Part shown: positions 52,312 through 58,769 of the stretch, one piece after another
How the letters are laid out: each line of letters opens with the position of its first letter
Numbering within the stretch: the first letter of the stretch is position 1
From: an uncultured Acidobacteriota bacterium
Lineage (GTDB): Bacteria; Acidobacteriota; Thermoanaerobaculia; Multivoradales; UBA5704
Assembly (NCBI GenBank): GCA_963700145.1
Contig: OY969474.1
Coordinates: 3,552,001 to 3,616,000, forward strand
Length of the DNA: 64,000 nucleotides
Direction of reading: 5' to 3'
Program-made: the position numbers and the translations under genes
The notes under the pieces: model-generated
Seen by the model: the letters and a program-made list of their open reading frames with translations, nothing else
Told to the model about the DNA's origin: nothing
Databases searched by the model: none

Positions 52312-53229
52312 CTACTGCTTGATGAGCGGCGAGAGGGCGCCGGTGTTGGCCCCGTTGCCGGAGAAGTAGTTGTCGCCGAACGAGCCGATCGTCCCGCCGG
52401 TGATCGTGAAGCCCGCCGTCGGGTTGTTGGTGATCGCGCTGCGCGACAGCCGAACCGTCGAGGTGCCGGCCGTGGTGATGCCGCGGGTGTTGTGCGAGAT
52501 CACCGAGTTGTCGACGTTCACCTGGCCCGGCGCGATGGTGCCGGCGGCGTCGATGCCCGCGATCGTGTTGCCGCTGGCGGTCGCGTTCTCGAGCGTGAAG
52601 ATCCCGCCCTCGCCGGCGAAGACGCCCGAGGCGTTGTTGGCGAGGATCGAGTCGGTGATCTGCACCTTGGCGGTCGGCGTGCCGCTGGTGGGGACGACCG
52701 CGACGCCGGCGGCGATGTTGTTGGTGACCGTCGACTCGCTGATGAAGACCTGCGTCGAAGTGCCGGTGGCGAGGTTGACGTCCACGCCGCGGCCCGGGCT
52801 GCCGCGGAAGCCGCTGATGTCGCAGTTCTCGATGTGCACCGCCTTGGCGCTCAGGACGCGCACGCCGCGGAGGCCGTTGCCCACGCCGTTGATGGCGATG
52901 TGACGGAGGGTGATGGTGTCGGTGGCGGCGGCGTTGATGGTCACCCCGGTCACCAGCGAGGCGGTGATGCCGGCGAGCTGCCCTTCACCGTTGATGGTGA
53001 TGGACTTGGTGATGGTGACGGCGCCGAAGCTGCCCGGATCGAGGACGCTGATCTCGCCGCCGGCCGCGGTCTTGGAGATCGCGCCCGCGAAGGTCTTGCA
53101 GGGCGCGGTGCGGCTGCACGGGTTGACGTCGTCGCCGACGCCGGAGACCCAGGTCCGTGTCGCCTGCGCCTGAGCGCTCATGGCGACGACGAGAATGAAG
53201 ACATACAGGAACGCGCAACGGCTACGCAT
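52312..53229 (-). CDS. Secreted right-handed beta-helix protein, paralog C
   Basis: Closely similar to paralogs A and B. Confidence 0.88.
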   Translation of the reverse strand: MRSRCAFLYVFILVVAMSAQAQATRTWVSGVGDDVNPCSRTAPCKTFAGAISKTAAGGEISVLDPGSFGAVTITKSITINGEGQLAGITASLVTGVTINAAATDTITLRHIAINGVGNGLRGVRVLSAKAVHIENCDISGFRGSPGRGVDVNLATGTSTQVFISESTVTNNIAAGVAVVPTSGTPTAKVQITDSILANNASGVFAGEGGIFTLENATASGNTIAGIDAAGTIAPGQVNVDNSVISHNTRGITTAGTSTVRLSRSAITNNPTAGFTITGGTIGSFGDNYFSGNGANTGALSPLIKQ

Positions 53230-53328: not shown

Positions 53329-54186
53329 CTAAACGAGCAGGTCCATTGCCGTCGCCGCGAAGAGCCAGACGGCGAGCATGCCGTTGGCGGTAAAAAAGGC
53401 GGCGTCGAGGCGCGAAAGATCGCCGGGGCGGACGATCCAGTGCTGGTAGGCGAGGAGCGCGAGGCAGCCGAGCCAGCCGAGCCAGTACCAGGCGCCGAGC
53501 CCCGGCGGGTAGACGCGCGGCAGGAGCGCGAGGAGCGCGAGCATCGCGGCATGAAAGAGGGCCGAGAGCCAGAGCGCCGGCACGGTGCCGAAGCGGGCGG
53601 GGATCGAGAAGAGCCCGGCGCGGCAGTCGAAGTCGAGGTCCTGCAAGGCGTAGAGGACGTCGAAGCCGGCGACCCAGAGAAGGACGGCGCCGGCGAGGAG
53701 GAACGGCGTCGGCGCGACGTCGCCGCGCACCGCGATCCAGGCCCCGAGCGGCGCGCCCGAGATCGCCAGGCCGAGCAGCAGGTGCGAGGCCCAGGTGAAG
53801 CGCTTGGTGTAGGAGTAGCCGCAGAGGATCAGCAGCGCCAGCGGCGCGAGCGCCAGCGCCAGCGGGTTGAGCTGCCACGCCGCCAGGACGAGGAGCGCGG
53901 CGCTGGCGAGGACGAAGAGCAGCACGAACCCCGGCGTCAGGAGGCCCGCGGGCAGCGCGCGCGACGCGGTGCGCGGGTTGGCGGCGTCGATCGTCCGGTC
54001 GGCGAGCCGGTTGAAGCCCATCGCCGTGCTCCGCGCCCCGACCATCGCGACGACGATCCAGAAGACCGTCCGCCAGGACGGCCACCCTTCGGCGGCGAGC
54101 AGCATCCCCAGGAAGGCGAACGGCAGCGCGAAGAGCGTGTGCTCGAACTTGATCATCTCGAGCACGATCCCGAGCCGCCCCTTCAC
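53329..54186 (-). CDS. UbiA-family prenyltransferase, futalosine-pathway type (MqnP-like)
   Basis: IKFEHTLFALPFA, NRLADRTIDAANPRT, YSYTKRF, FDVLYALQD. Confidence 0.9.
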   Translation of the reverse strand: MKGRLGIVLEMIKFEHTLFALPFAFLGMLLAAEGWPSWRTVFWIVVAMVGARSTAMGFNRLADRTIDAANPRTASRALPAGLLTPGFVLLFVLASAALLVLAAWQLNPLALALAPLALLILCGYSYTKRFTWASHLLLGLAISGAPLGAWIAVRGDVAPTPFLLAGAVLLWVAGFDVLYALQDLDFDCRAGLFSIPARFGTVPALWLSALFHAAMLALLALLPRVYPPGLGAWYWLGWLGCLALLAYQHWIVRPGDLSRLDAAFFTANGMLAVWLFAATAMDLLV

Positions 54187-55805
54187 CGCTCCTCCGGCTT
54201 CGGCTCGATCGGGCGCCCGCTCGCCTCCCACGCCCGCCATCCTCCGGTCAGGGCGCGCGCGTTGCGCCACCCCGCCCGCTGCAGCTCGCGCGTCACCCGG
54301 ACGCTCGTGCGCTCCTCAGGTCACGTGCAGTACGAGACGAGCCAGGTGTCCGGCGGCAGGCCCCACGCCCCGACCACCTCGACCGCGTTGTCCGGCGGCA
54401 CGCGGACGGCGCCGCGCGCCCGCTCGGAGCTCTCGCGGTAGGCGCCCTCGCTGCGCACGTCGAGGAGCACGACCGGCTCCCCGCGCCGCTCCAGCTCGGC
54501 GAGCTCCTCCAGCGTGATGCGCTCGGGGTCTCCCTTGTCCAAGGCCGCCGCCCCCTCGGGGACCGTCGCGACCGCAGGGGGCGGCACCGGCGGCGCCTCC
54601 GCGACGGCGCCGGCGGGCGCCGGCCGCAGGAAGACCTGCGAGCCGCCGTGGATGACGACCGACAGCAGCACGACGAGGGCCGTGATCTCGAAGAGCTCGC
54701 CGGCGCGCGGCAGCCCGGCGAAGACGGCGAGGAGCACGAGGAGGAGCGAGCTCAGGCCGCGCGGGCCGAACCAGGCGGCGAGCAGGCGACTGCGCCGGTC
54801 GAGGCTGCTGCCGGCGAGGACGGCGAGCAGCAGCGGGGCGCGCACGAAGAGGGCGACCGCGGCGAAGAGCAGCGCCGCCGGGCTCAGCGCCGTGAGGCCG
54901 CCCCAGATCGCCGAGCTGCCGAGGGCTACGAAGGTGAACAGCAGCCCCAGCTCCGCGGTCGCCTGCCCGTAGTCGAAGAAGCACTCGCAGAGCTCGACGT
55001 CGAGGGCGGCGATCGTCAGCCCGGCCGCGAAGGCGGCGAGGAAGCCGCTGCCGCCGACCGCCTCGGCCGCGGCGAAGGCGGTCAGCGCGACGCCGAAGCC
55101 GTAGAGCGACTCGTAGTCGCGCCGCACGCCGACGCGGCGGCGGATGACGTGGAGGGCGCCGATCGCCACCAGGCCCACGACCACCCCGCCGGCGATGCCG
55201 GGCACGAAGAGGCCGAGCGCCGCCCGCCCCATCTCGGCACCCCCCGGCGGCGCCTCGCCCGGCACCAGGAACCGCATGGCGACCAGCACCACCGGCAGCA
55301 GAACGGCGTCGTTCATGCCGCTCTCGAGGCGGAGGGCGTAGCGGGCCGGGGGCGGCAGGCTGGGGTTGCGCAGCAGGCCGCGCAGGAGCACCGGGTCGGT
55401 CGAGGCGAGGGCCGCGCCGACGATCGCGCTCTCGGCCACCCCCAGCCCGAGGATGCCCCAGGCGGCGAGCCCGATCGCGGCCGCGGTCAGCAGCGTCGCC
55501 GGGCCGAGGATCAGGGCGGCGAGCCGCAGGTGGTGCCGGAGGTCGGCGAAGGTGATGTCCACGGCGTCGGTGAAGAGCACGAGCACCAGCCCGAGCGTCG
55601 CGACGGCGCGGATCGTGGGCGAATCGACGGCGAGCGAGACGAGCCCCAGCCCGAACGGGCCGAGGGCGGTGCCGAGCGCGAGGAAGACCAGCGTCTGCGG
55701 CAGCCGCGTGCGGTCGGCGACCCCCGACAGCAGCGCCGCCGTCAGGACCACGGCGCCGACGATGCCGAAGATGCTGATCATCGGCTCGATGTCGTGCAGG
55801 CTCAA
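54183..55805 (-). CDS. CPA1 cation/H+ antiporter-rhodanese fusion, probable selenoprotein (UGA at 54323-54321)
   Basis: ASTDPV, ESGMND, WFGPRG; rhodanese LLDVRS...YCT-U-PEERTS...ALTGGWRAW continues in frame to a TGA overlapping the next GTG. Confidence 0.85.
54284..54310 (-). promoter_or_regulatory. Candidate SECIS hairpin
   Basis: GCGTC-CGGGT-GACGC (+17 to +31 after the UGA) with extendable lower stem; loop G at +23. Confidence 0.6.
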
Positions 55806-55867: not shown

Positions 55868-56785
55868 TCAGGGACAGGTGTCGAACGCGTTGGTGTCCTG
55901 CACCGGCTGGAAGGGCGTCCCGAGGTCGTTCAAGTAGATCTGCTGTGCCCCGGTGTGGCTGTCCGTGACGTAGATGTCGACTTGGACGTCCGTCAGGCCG
56001 CCGGCGAACACCCAGAACCTCCCGAACGGGGCGCAGGCGTCGAGCACCTTGATGACGACCTCGACGTTGCTGGGGCTGAAGAACCAGAGGTAGCCGGTGT
56101 CGTCGGTGAGCTTGACCACCGCGGCGCGGCCCGCCGCGGTCTGCGTCCGCCAGAAAGCCACCACCTCGAAGCGCTCCTGGTTGAGGCAAAGGACGTGCGA
56201 CAGGGCGGCGCAGGTGTGGGGGACCTTGAGAGCGACGTTGTCGAAGTGTGCCACCGCCTCGCCCCCCGCGCCGAACTTGGCGACGACGAGCCCGATCCGG
56301 ACGCCTCGCGCCTCCAGCGGCACGGTGAAGCGGAGCCCGGCGTCGGGGCTCGGATGCCAGGCGCCGTCCGTCACCTCCCCGGCGAACCCCCCGGTGCCGA
56401 GGAACTCGCTGCCCGGGCTGCACGTCGGGTCGTTGTACCAGGTGATCGGGGTATGCACGATCGCCGTCACCCCGCCCGTCGCCTCGAGGCGGTAGTCGTA
56501 GCGGCGCACGAGCACCATGCCGCCGGTCACCGGGACGCACTCGGAGAACGCGATCTCGGCGGCGTTGGCCGCCGGATGCGCGATGGAGGTGCGCAGCGAC
56601 CCCGAGTTCGGCAAGCCGAAGGCATCGATCGGGCTGAAGGTGGGGGGCGAAGTGAACCCCTCCCACGGCGCGACGTTAGTGTCGAAGGTGCCGTTCTGGA
56701 GCAGGTTCTGCGCCGCCGCCGGCGCAGCGCCGCAGCAGAGCACGACCGCGAGGGCAAGGCAGCGGCAGCGTCGGTTCGTCGCCAA
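55868..56785 (-). CDS. Secreted protein with carbohydrate-binding-like N-terminus and conserved C-terminal beta domain
   Basis: Signal peptide; NLLQNGTFD; LCLNQERFEV...WFF...NVEVVIKVLDAC...FWVFAGGLTDV. Confidence 0.78.
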   Translation of the reverse strand: MATNRRCRCLALAVVLCCGAAPAAAQNLLQNGTFDTNVAPWEGFTSPPTFSPIDAFGLPNSGSLRTSIAHPAANAAEIAFSECVPVTGGMVLVRRYDYRLEATGGVTAIVHTPITWYNDPTCSPGSEFLGTGGFAGEVTDGAWHPSPDAGLRFTVPLEARGVRIGLVVAKFGAGGEAVAHFDNVALKVPHTCAALSHVLCLNQERFEVVAFWRTQTAAGRAAVVKLTDDTGYLWFFSPSNVEVVIKVLDACAPFGRFWVFAGGLTDVQVDIYVTDSHTGAQQIYLNDLGTPFQPVQDTNAFDTCP

Positions 56786-56834: not shown

Positions 56835-57140
56835 TCAACGCTCGCCCCGGTCCTGGTCCAGCAGCTCGGCCGAGGTGATGCCTTCGAGGGCGGCCGGCAT
56901 CCGCTCGTAGATCTCCGGCCGGTTCGGGCCGCCCAGCCGGATGCTCCCCCGCCGGACGAGCTCGGCGAGGCCTGGATAGCGCTGCAGCAGGTCGAGCTGG
57001 TGCTCGTTCCGCGGCTCGGGCGGCCGCAGCTCGGCCACCACCTGGCTGCGATCGGTGACCAGGACGGTTTCCCCTTGCCGCACTTTGCGCACGTAGTCGC
57101 TCAGCCGTTTCTTCAGCTCGCGGATGTCGACACTGTGCAT
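56835..57140 (-). CDS. Phd/YefM-family antitoxin
   Basis: VDIRELKKRLSDYVRKVRQGETVLVTDR...VAEL. Confidence 0.85.
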   Translation of the reverse strand: MHSVDIRELKKRLSDYVRKVRQGETVLVTDRSQVVAELRPPEPRNEHQLDLLQRYPGLAELVRRGSIRLGGPNRPEIYERMPAALEGITSAELLDQDRGER

Positions 57141-57310
57141 GGCCCGGAAATGTTCCGCGTGTAGCCATCTGGGCAACGGCCGGTAGCGCGGCCTTCGTCC
57201 GATTGCTTCCTGACTATCACCAAGCCGATTCGTGGTGAAGCTCGCGGAGCACGCACCCAGACCTTAGGCCACCAAGCCCCTCACCGGGCGGCACGGTGAC
57301 GGTCTCAACC

Positions 57311-58769
57311 GGGGTTGTCCCTCCCGCTGTTGAAAGAGCAATGAGGTGAAGGCGGCTCCTCGGCCCACCTGATCGAGAATCGGGTTGGTCGAATAACCGG
57401 CCCCGCCAGGGGGCCAAGGAGCCGTGATGAAGACGAGAGCAGAAAGGCGGGTGGTGTGGCAAGGGGGCCGTGCGGCGCGCATCAGCCACGGGCTACAAGC
57501 GCTGCTGCGGCCGATGGTCGAGGGCATCGAGGCCAGCCGCCAGGGGCTGCTGGAGCTGTTTCACGCCGCGGGCGTCGAGGCCCTGGGGCGGCAGCTCGCG
57601 GACGAGGTCGAGGCCGTCGTCGGTCCGAAGCGTCGGCGCAATCCGACCCGCGAGGCGTACCGCTGGGGCTCGACGGCGAGCGAGTTCGTGCTGGGTGGCC
57701 GCCAGGTGGCGCTGCCGCGACCGCGCGTCCGGCGACGCGACGGTGGCGAGATGAGCTTGCCTTCGGTGCGCGCCTTTCAGGACGAAGATCCCTTCACGGA
57801 GCGGGTGATCGAGCAGGCGCTGGTCGGCGTCTCGCAGCGCCGCTACGGTCGGAGCTTGGAGCCGCTCGCAGAGTCGGTGCCGGAGCGCGCGACGAGCAAG
57901 AGTGCGGTCCAGCGCCGGCTGGTGGCGGGGACGCGTCGTCTGCTGGGCGCGTGGCTGCGCCGAGACCTGTCGGACTTCCAGCCCCTGATCCTGATGATCG
58001 ACGGGCTGGAGGTGGCCGGCCACACCCTGGTGGTGGCACTCGGCATCGCGCGCGACGGGACCAAGCGGGTGCTCGGCCTGCGTGAAGGCGCGACGGAGAA
58101 CGCGGCGCTCTGTACCGGCCTGCTCCAGGAGCTGTTGGAGCGAGGCCTCGCGATGCCGCCGCGCTTCTTGGCGGTGCTCGACGGCGGCAAGGGGCTGCGC
58201 AAGGCCGTGCGCGCCGTCTTCGGGGACGCAACCCACGTCCAGCGCTGCCAGCTCCACAAGCGCCGCAACGTCCGCGACCACCTGCCCAAGCAGCTCCAAG
58301 CCCGGGTCGACCGCCTGATGGTCGAGGCCTACCAGAGCGCTCGCTTCGACCTCGCCAAGCGTCGCCTCGAGCAGCTTGCCCGCTGGCTCGAGCACGCAGG
58401 CCACGCGGGCGCCGCGGGCAGCCTGCGCGAGGGCCTCGACGAGACCCTCACCGCCTTGCGGCTGAAGCTGCCCGACGCTCTGCGCCGGTTGCTCGCCTCG
58501 ACCAACGCGATCGAGAACACGATCGGCTCGATCCGTACGACGACGCGCAACGTCAAGCGCTGGCGCGGCGGCGACATGGTGCTGCGCTGGGTCGCCCTGG
58601 CGCTGTGTGACGCGGAGGCTGGCTTCCGGCGTGTCAAGGGACATCGGCACCTCGGGGCTCTCGAGCTCGCGCTCGCGGCGATCGAGGAACCGACGAACAC
58701 CAAGGCCGTGGCATGATCAACCGAGCCGCTTTCCCTCTTTCGGCTTTCAACAGGGAACGGGGCATCCCC
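57311..58769 (+). mobile_element. IS256-family element, copy 3
   Basis: Same ends as copies 1 and 2; flanks GTCTCAACC and CCAACGTCG. Confidence 0.95.
57424..58716 (+). CDS. IS256-family DDE transposase
   Basis: Translation identical to copies 1 and 2. Confidence 0.95.
   Translation: MMKTRAERRVVWQGGRAARISHGLQALLRPMVEGIEASRQGLLELFHAAGVEALGRQLADEVEAVVGPKRRRNPTREAYRWGSTASEFVLGGRQVALPRPRVRRRDGGEMSLPSVRAFQDEDPFTERVIEQALVGVSQRRYGRSLEPLAESVPERATSKSAVQRRLVAGTRRLLGAWLRRDLSDFQPLILMIDGLEVAGHTLVVALGIARDGTKRVLGLREGATENAALCTGLLQELLERGLAMPPRFLAVLDGGKGLRKAVRAVFGDATHVQRCQLHKRRNVRDHLPKQLQARVDRLMVEAYQSARFDLAKRRLEQLARWLEHAGHAGAAGSLREGLDETLTALRLKLPDALRRLLASTNAIENTIGSIRTTTRNVKRWRGGDMVLRWVALALCDAEAGFRRVKGHRHLGALELALAAIEEPTNTKAVA

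Follow-up and report, generated by a model that had tools for sequence, protein, structure and literature searches.

Does the TGA that interrupts an antiporter gene in an uncultured Acidobacteriota bacterium end the protein, or is it read as selenocysteine (Sec, U) so that the product continues into a complete rhodanese domain? The gene occupies 54183..55805 on the minus strand of a 64,000-nucleotide stretch of the genome (GenBank assembly GCA_963700145.1, contig OY969474.1, positions 3,552,001 to 3,616,000), hereafter the window, whose own numbering is used throughout. The initial annotation, made from the letters of the window alone, called the gene a probable selenoprotein in which a cation/H+ antiporter is fused to a rhodanese domain with a C-T-U active site. 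Our analysis strongly supported this proposal through a TGA conserved among orthologues, a covarying hairpin downstream of it, and sel genes in the same genome. The best explanation overall, in which we have high confidence, is that the gene encodes one 540-residue inner-membrane selenoprotein, composed of an NhaP/CPA1-type antiporter (CPA, cation:proton antiporter), a tether, and a Sec-containing rhodanese domain that would lie in the cytoplasm.

A reading frame interrupted in a rhodanese active site

Under translation table 11, the open reading frame (ORF) runs from a TTG start at 55805 to 54321 on the minus strand and gives a product of 494 residues, the last of which are ...WLVSYCT. Its stop, the TGA at 54323..54321, interrupts the active-site loop of a rhodanese domain immediately after C493-T494, as the initial annotation had noted. 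Reading through this codon adds PEERTSVRVTRELQRAGWRNARALTGGWRAWEASGRPIEPKPEER, up to a second TGA at 54185..54183, for a gene of 540 codons plus its final stop with Sec at codon 495. The active-site triplet C493 (TGC), T494 (ACG), and U495 (TGA) thus occupies 54321..54329. The segment reached only by read-through (45 codons, 54186..54320) supplies the second half of the rhodanese fold, through its GGW..AW motif. This is the half that had been reported missing, and the domain assignment requires it: Pfam PF00581 (Rhodanese) matched with 31.6 bits (2.4e-7, gathering score 22.2) only when the read-through part was included. The second stop overlaps the GTG at 54186..54184 as GTGA, and translation from this GTG yields a UbiA-family protein (PF01040), the prenyltransferase at that junction in the initial annotation.

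Conservation of the TGA among orthologues

We searched 41 related genomes in six frames, the window's own included; 25 of the 41 belong to the window's own family and 16 to other families of the order. Full-length orthologues at 52-100% identity were present in 10 genomes, each with exactly one in-frame TGA, and this TGA stood at the same aligned position after C-x in 10/10 (YCT-U-PEE, FCA-U-KAE, FCA-U-RDE, YCA-U-RDE, and similar). An eleventh match (G017) runs off its contig end before the Sec site. All 11 genomes with matches belong to the window's own family, and the six-frame search gave no full-length match in the order's other families (16 genomes).

A public scan with one genome per species, covering 185,579 species, returned 42 loci, of which L065 and L068 stop short of the site and were left out of the site count, leaving 40. 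The metagenome-assembled genomes (MAGs) that carry these loci are labelled Thermoanaerobaculia, Gemmatimonadales/Gemmatimonadaceae, Bryobacteraceae/Solibacter, Armatimonadota/'Fervidifonticultor', Chloroflexi, and unclassified bacteria. At identities of 40-99%, the codon at the site was TGA in 39/40 loci and TGC in one (L059, labelled Chloroflexi). One row of these counts, L044, comes from a genome flagged as unpublished (G042), and without it TGA accounts for 38/39. The frame is open for 41-57 codons past the TGA in the 37 TGA loci free of contig-end cuts. Over the 27 codons beyond the hairpin in these 37 loci, the mean pairwise differences at codon positions 1/2/3 were 0.32/0.33/0.57, compared to 0.48/0.46/0.65 for the 27 codons upstream of the site, a pattern that marks the tail as protein-coding and conserved even better than the start of the domain. 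In two public long-read MAG contigs (L072 and L082), the orthologue changes frame between its N- and C-terminal parts with the TGA and hairpin intact, and this split is probably an assembly indel.

We also searched 1.84 billion cluster representatives exhaustively with HMMER. Among the best 150 representatives, 36 end at ...C-x, 10 have C-x-C (full-length or fragmentary), one has C-A-T, and the remainder are fragments or unfused relatives. The C-A-T form (P0078) is a fused cluster representative of 415 residues that keeps the first Cys and has Thr at the Sec position. The initial annotation had suggested looking for homologues with TGA or Cys at this site, and both occur: TGA in all ten relatives and in 39 of the 40 public loci, and Cys in L059 as well as the ten representatives.

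The site is also present in environmental reads. A soil-metagenome contig of 488 nucleotides (run X1) spans the TGA and the hairpin, and its 4 differences from our sequence all lie elsewhere. Soil metagenome runs from 15 studies contain parts of the gene, with word shares of 0.06-0.50; no RNA run was among the sequencing runs found to carry gene parts.

A covarying hairpin downstream of the TGA

Bacterial Sec insertion sequence (SECIS) elements are described in PMC1088965 as lying immediately 3' of the UGA and having a small apical loop that contains a G. The window has a hairpin in this position, at +14..+34 after the UGA (54287..54307, minus strand), and its form agrees with that description, as had been claimed for it. 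The 5-bp core, GCGUC-CGGGU-GACGC with the apical loop C-G-G-G-U, spans +17..+31 (54304..54290), exactly where the initial annotation had placed a hairpin, and two further lower pairs (C14-G34 and G15-C33) extend it across an A16/G32 mismatch.

We examined the conservation of the hairpin in an alignment of 44 distinct TGA forms (our own, 37 public loci, and 6 relatives). Every one of them (44/44) forms the five core pairs. Over eight pairs, pairing occurred in 85.8% of cells and in 19-48% when the 3' partner was slid by 1-3 columns. Compensatory changes were found in 4/8 pairs, and the observed covariation score was reached by 0/500 shuffles. One compensated pair alternates between C-G and G-C (16 vs 14 sequences), and the other three exchange G-C for A-U (3 sequences), C-G for U-A (3 sequences, plus one U-G), and C-G for A-U (1 sequence, L026). 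The L026 change is a GCC->GCA paired with a GUG->GUU, silent on both sides, and protein constraint therefore cannot account for it. The apical loop reads C-G-G/U-G-U (C-G-K-G-U) throughout the aligned TGA forms. The TGC form, L059, is without such a hairpin. An Rfam scan of 54100..54450 with E up to 10 gave two chance-level matches (snoZ206 and fiv_FSE) and no SECIS family.

Selenocysteine machinery

The window's genome, a single contig of 5.46 Mb, contains tRNA-Sec, selA, selB, and selD, all over curated cut-offs, which are the genes whose absence was to have counted against a selenoprotein. The tRNA-Sec scored 70.3 bits (gathering score 47) and has the anticodon tca (ARAGORN), and the scores for selA, selB, and selD were 442.9, 361.8, and 339.5 bits. 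The selD gene lies outside the window (L018, G000:C1:3788741-3789661) and has one in-frame TGA, so that by its sequence it is likely a second selenoprotein gene. Among the other TGA-form genomes tested, selA was over cut-off in 9/9, the unpublished G042 among them. In the TGC-form genome, G041, whose completeness is unknown, there was no selA, selB, or tRNA-Sec over cut-off.

The rhodanese domain and its C-x-U loop

The rhodanese domain covers residues 432-528 (54222..54512, minus strand) and is inferred to be cytoplasmic. Its best rhodanese-type NCBIfam match was NF041203 (rhodanese_LYCAU, 'rhodanese-related (seleno)protein'), the domain there spanning residues 422-536 and scoring 83.9 bits, below the cut-off of 115; in the genome search the same model gave 80.8 bits. 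The active-site loop contains the C-x-U motif that NF041203 specifies, as C493-x-U495. C493 is invariant in 36/36 aligned fused homologues, as are D449 and R451, which are typical rhodanese residues. In the AlphaFold2 model described below, C493-T494-U495 makes up the short coil that links strand 488-492 to helix 496-510.

The alignment of this loop to known rhodaneses can be drawn in two ways. A pairwise alignment put U495 on the catalytic Cys of rhodanese 6mxv, and a profile alignment put C493 there, with x-U as a 2-residue insertion. Depending on the alignment, either the active-site loop is two residues longer than the canonical six or Sec replaces the catalytic Cys. The loop after C-x-U is acidic (P-E-E here, usually x-x-E-A-T-S) and lacks the canonical Arg, with no Arg outside our own genus. 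The active-site loops of thiosulfate sulfurtransferases are basic. Arsenate-reductase-like (Cdc25/Acr2) chemistry was set aside, as the loop does not have the HCX5R pattern.

The membrane domain

Residues 22-389 (54639..55742, minus strand) form an NhaP/CPA1-type cation:proton antiporter domain with 13 predicted membrane helices, and match Pfam PF00999 (Na_H_Exchanger) over the same span with 137.8 bits (5e-40, gathering score 26.2). An AlphaFold2 model built from 36 homologues had a mean pLDDT (predicted local distance difference test) of 85.1 and a pTM (predicted template modelling score) of 0.76, and comprised the 13 helices, a disordered linker, and an alpha/beta domain. The best Foldseek matches of this model were the archaeal Na+/H+ antiporters PaNhaP (4cz8) and MjNhaP1 (4czb), followed by SOS1, SLC9C1, NHE1/3, and KefC. 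In the family-profile alignment, T136-D137, E161-S162, N165-D166, and the GPRG motif matched identical PaNhaP residues. We take the T-D of the broken helix, the E-S and N-D of the next helix, and the Arg of GPRG to be the ion site of PaNhaP/MjNhaP1. The Pfam match, the PaNhaP/MjNhaP1 fold, and the aligned TD/ES/ND/GPRG residues together make a functional antiporter likely.

The curated models assign no substrate ion. The nearest NCBIfam entries were potassium/proton antiporter models, the best of which, NF003716, gave 128.6 bits vs a cut-off of 355, and the NCBIfam scan placed the protein in no curated K+/H+ or Na+/H+ equivalog. The membrane domain alone returned 0 matches in a phmmer search of the PDB at 1e-5; the profile search succeeded. 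The count of 13 helices would put the C-terminal domain in the cytoplasm, and the Arg-rich loops, read from the sequence, alternate sides as expected from the positive-inside rule.

The membrane domain carries a second C-x-C, C273 and C275, within the motif LDVELC[ED]CF (54981..54989, minus strand), in a turn between helices 254-268 and 270-305. In the predicted topology this turn would face the cytoplasm. C273 and C275 are invariant in 36/36 aligned fused homologues, and both Cys were present in 54/55 rhodanese-bearing database proteins that cover the motif. The motif is variable in most unfused relatives (30-37% identity). Between the two domains lies a flexible linker (residues 399-424, 54534..54611, minus strand) with pLDDT <50 and a length that varies widely among homologues.

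Relationship to known proteins

CxU rhodaneses are a predicted selenoprotein family, designated 'form 3' or, in the 2022 review, COG0607 form 2 (PMC13188914 and PMC9312934), which together with NF041203 bears out the assertion in the initial annotation that such proteins have been described. Among 17 rhodanese-only matches from related genomes, 14 had TGA at the site and 3 a Cys codon. The hairpin recurs in all 14 TGA forms of these stand-alone CxU rhodaneses, again at +17..+31 and with the loop C-G-K-G-Y, and NF041203 proteins share the C-x-U followed by x-x-E-x-[TS]-[SA]. The shared hairpin and offset indicate that the SECIS and the rhodanese domain of the fusion are homologous to those of the stand-alone CxU family. 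NF041203 proteins differ in having ~126 residues, the whole of the 126-position model, while here the domain is part of a 540-residue antiporter fusion; no stand-alone NF041203 copy was found over cut-off in the window's genome. In the 14 CxU rhodanese genes with TGA (L086-L099), the frame is open for 130-213 codons before the site, and some of these genes may carry N-terminal membrane or other domains of their own. A domain tree from a quick search (66 rows, 112 columns) was weakly resolved, with 30/63 inner branches open. On this tree the sampled stand-alone forms cluster apart from most fused forms, and the Cys forms are scattered on long branches (8 changes for 12 rows).

The antiporter part shares its fold with PaNhaP/MjNhaP1 (Foldseek E ~1e-11, TM-score ~0.73 normalised by target length) at only ~20% identity, and differs from NhaP antiporters by the additional C-terminal Sec-rhodanese and the invariant membrane C-x-C. 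The potassium/proton antiporter models NF003716 and NF003715 are the nearest curated families, with scores far below their equivalog cut-offs. KefC (8by2), SOS1, NHE1/3, and SLC9C1, all structural matches, have a similar architecture in which a CPA transporter domain is followed by a tethered cytoplasmic domain. The type of tail differs: these exchangers have KTN/RCK, CNBD, and other domains where our protein has a rhodanese, and KefC belongs to CPA2. The cytoplasmic tails of KefC, SOS1, NHE, and SLC9C1 are regulatory, and gating by such a tail is common among CPA exchangers. In KefC, which is gated by glutathione, K+/H+ exchange is coupled to thiol/electrophile chemistry. KefC senses through glutathione adducts, whereas the sensing proposed here would use the protein's own Cys and Sec.

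A single-sequence search aligned just one protein of known structure with almost the entire rhodanese domain (residues 26-119 of a 125-residue query), namely Alr3790 of Nostoc, a rhodanese homology domain (3hix, 3k9r, 2kl3). Its acidic loop, G-D-E-Q-T-S, resembles the P-E-E-R-T-S found here. Alr3790 has Y-G-A-G at the site, with neither Cys nor Sec, and is neither fused to a transporter nor a selenoprotein. Predicted selenoproteins among transporters include the cation-transporting ATPase E1-E2 (UxxC), the SO_0444 Cu/Zn efflux transporter (UxC), YeeE/YedE, and the mercuric transport protein (listed in PMC13188914). These likewise combine membrane transport with Sec in a Cys/Sec motif, and belong to other transporter families.

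CxU Sec-rhodaneses and bacterial SECIS elements have been described before, but the joining of such a domain to an antiporter seems not to have been. Neither PMC13188914 nor PMC9312934 uses the word 'antiporter' or 'exchanger' (0 occurrences), no NCBIfam model spans the full-length fusion, and a full-text literature search found no paper on an antiporter-Sec-rhodanese fusion, which the supplements of selenoproteome surveys might list under rhodanese. The shortened products are named 'cation:proton antiporter' or 'NhaP-type antiporter' by NCBI and JGI.

Genomic context

The gene overlapping the final stop encodes a UbiA-like polyprenyltransferase (53329..54186, minus strand; PF01040 6e-54; TIGR01475 303 bits, cut-off 180.8). 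It is also MqnP-like, although its 310 bits fall short of the 430 that this model requires. The initial annotation had suggested that the fusion might be coupled to menaquinone synthesis through this neighbour, and our comparison did not support the idea. Among 53 loci (5 matches), a UbiA gene follows the antiporter only in the window's genome and its two closest relatives, three near-identical genomes at >=93% identity, and the 82%-identical relative L043 has none downstream. Among the remaining neighbours, none was common to more than 6/41 loci, based on clustered stop-to-stop frames of at least 90 codons with the gene itself and shadow frames set aside.

Two ORFs of 305 residues, both with signal-peptide-like hydrophobic N-termini, flank the antiporter-UbiA pair. 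The first (52312-53229, minus strand) has right-handed beta-helix/NosD repeats (PF13229, 55.6 bits), and the second (55868-56785, minus strand) had no Pfam or NCBIfam match. Beyond the second lie a small ORF with a Phd/YefM antitoxin-like N-terminus (56835-57176, minus strand; PF02604 29.1 bits, marginally below its cut-off of 29.8) and a Mutator-family transposase of 430 residues (57424-58716, plus strand; PF00872 115 bits), ~1.6 kb from the antiporter start codon.

Decoding of the TGA and function of the fusion

From the comparative evidence, UGA495 is very probably decoded as selenocysteine via SelB and tRNA-Sec. Were the codon a true stop instead, whether a nonsense mutation or the natural end of a 494-residue product with the downstream similarity a decaying remnant, the public gene calls would be correct as they stand: 20/20 fused homologues examined (of 26 matches) end at ...YC[TA], as do four of the five others, the fifth being a fragment. 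The unremarkable single-sequence thermodynamics of the site would also fit. Such an account has the same codon 'mutated' in 39/40 loci of several labelled phyla at 40-99% identity, in front of 41-57 open codons that vary in the manner of coding sequence and contain a covarying hairpin, and it has to accommodate Cys forms that are full length; we regard it as extremely improbable. Sequence analysis cannot tell which residue is inserted, and UGA495 might also be read through without selenium, by a near-cognate tRNA for Trp, Cys, or Arg, with the hairpin acting as a general read-through stimulator. We consider this very improbable given the Sec machinery in the TGA-form genomes tested and none detected in the TGC-form genome, a choice of alternative codons in orthologues restricted to Cys plus one Thr, and a hairpin whose position and small G-containing loop fit bacterial SECIS elements (as outlined in PMC1088965) and which the catalogued CxU rhodanese relatives share.

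Several observations weigh against the selenoprotein and its proposed regulation. The 86-nucleotide fold around the site, taken as a single sequence, had z = 0.36, and 125/200 shuffles were equally stable. Such unremarkable stability is expected in GC-rich DNA, and since our own sequence alone does no better than chance, support for the hairpin comes from comparison. Kinship among the sequences inflates the cell counts (21), so that the four compensated pairs represent only a handful of independent changes. The stem overlaps a conserved T-S-A-R-V-A peptide, which may explain part of the hairpin conservation. A stand-alone Cys-form rhodanese, L102, still has the stem; another Cys form, L100, has lost it. 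For the function, the membrane C-x-C also occurs in seven relatives without a detected rhodanese match (P0113, P0126, P0145, P0147, P0156, P0169, and P0177) and is thus not specific to the fusion. Whether C493 or U495 would be the nucleophile is ambiguous, because the two alignments disagree and P0078 keeps C493 with Thr495. Sec insertion and transport are both predicted from indirect evidence, and gating is conjectural.

In the selenoprotein that we favor, SelB with Sec-tRNA would bind the hairpin 14 nucleotides past UGA495, Sec would be inserted, and translation would complete the rhodanese fold. The C-x-U pair could then act as a highly reactive thiol/selenol switch: on meeting oxidants, reactive sulfur species (sulfane sulfur), selenium species, or electrophiles, it would turn into a selenenylsulfide, a persulfide/perselenide, or an adduct. 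The tethered rhodanese domain would in turn gate K+(Na+)/H+ exchange, possibly through C273-x-C275. The C-terminal position of the rhodanese, the exchanger-type structural relatives, the disordered linker of variable length, the acidic Arg-less loop, and the membrane C-x-C point to such a regulatory role. As the likeliest function we tentatively propose that the C-x-U rhodanese is a cytoplasmic redox or sulfur sensor gating cation/proton exchange, similar in logic to the tails of those relatives, and we hold this with slightly less than even confidence. Redox or sulfur/selenium gating had also been raised as a possibility in the initial annotation. That the protein is the first ion exchanger under a Sec switch, with an Se-S bond formed or exchanged with C273-x-C275 to open or close K+(Na+)/H+ exchange, is a more speculative idea and on the unlikely side. 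A complex prediction for the membrane and rhodanese parts of the Cys-form homologue P0033 scored 0.00, which amounts to no answer and is evidence neither way.

A selenoprotein could also use its rhodanese as a catalytic sulfur/selenium transferase that the antiporter merely anchors, with no part in transport regulation; such a transferase may pass persulfide/perselenide to a partner or detoxify sulfide/selenide locally. The stand-alone CxU rhodaneses are closely related and have the same SECIS, D449 and R451 are invariant, and Sec is usually found at catalytic redox sites (according to the abstract of PMC1794560), all of which suit catalysis. The acidic loop, two residues longer than canonical in the profile alignment and without the canonical Arg, does not, nor was any sulfur-metabolism gene found among the conserved neighbours. 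That the fusion and the intact ion-site residues have been kept together across several labelled phyla argues for a functional link to transport, and we think anchored catalysis rather unlikely. With four Cys/Sec residues invariant or nearly so, all inferred to be cytoplasmic, C-x-U and C273-x-C275 might instead form a joint binding site for a soft metal or metalloid (Cu+, Ag+, Hg2+, or As or Se species) for metal sensing or resistance. This appears quite unlikely, as the carboxylate/amide residues with which Na+/H+ exchangers handle hard cations are retained in the transport site, the conserved neighbours include no metal-resistance gene, and the relatives without a detected rhodanese match have the membrane C-x-C as well.

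Implications

The fusion is found in loci labelled Acidobacteriota, Gemmatimonadota, and Armatimonadota, and near-identical copies of the gene occur in soil metagenome runs. Since the database products in the public protein sets searched stop short at the Sec codon, tallies of selenoproteins in these lineages probably miss the antiporter-rhodanese family. The compact SECIS within the coding sequence, which has clean compensatory changes and is common to the stand-alone CxU rhodaneses, offers a possible search model. The fusion would place selenocysteine on a secondary ion transporter, and whether redox state, sulfur, or selenium can control cation/proton exchange could be tested on it. If a Sec switch does gate the exchanger, these bacteria would have a Kef-like protective acidification system built on selenium.

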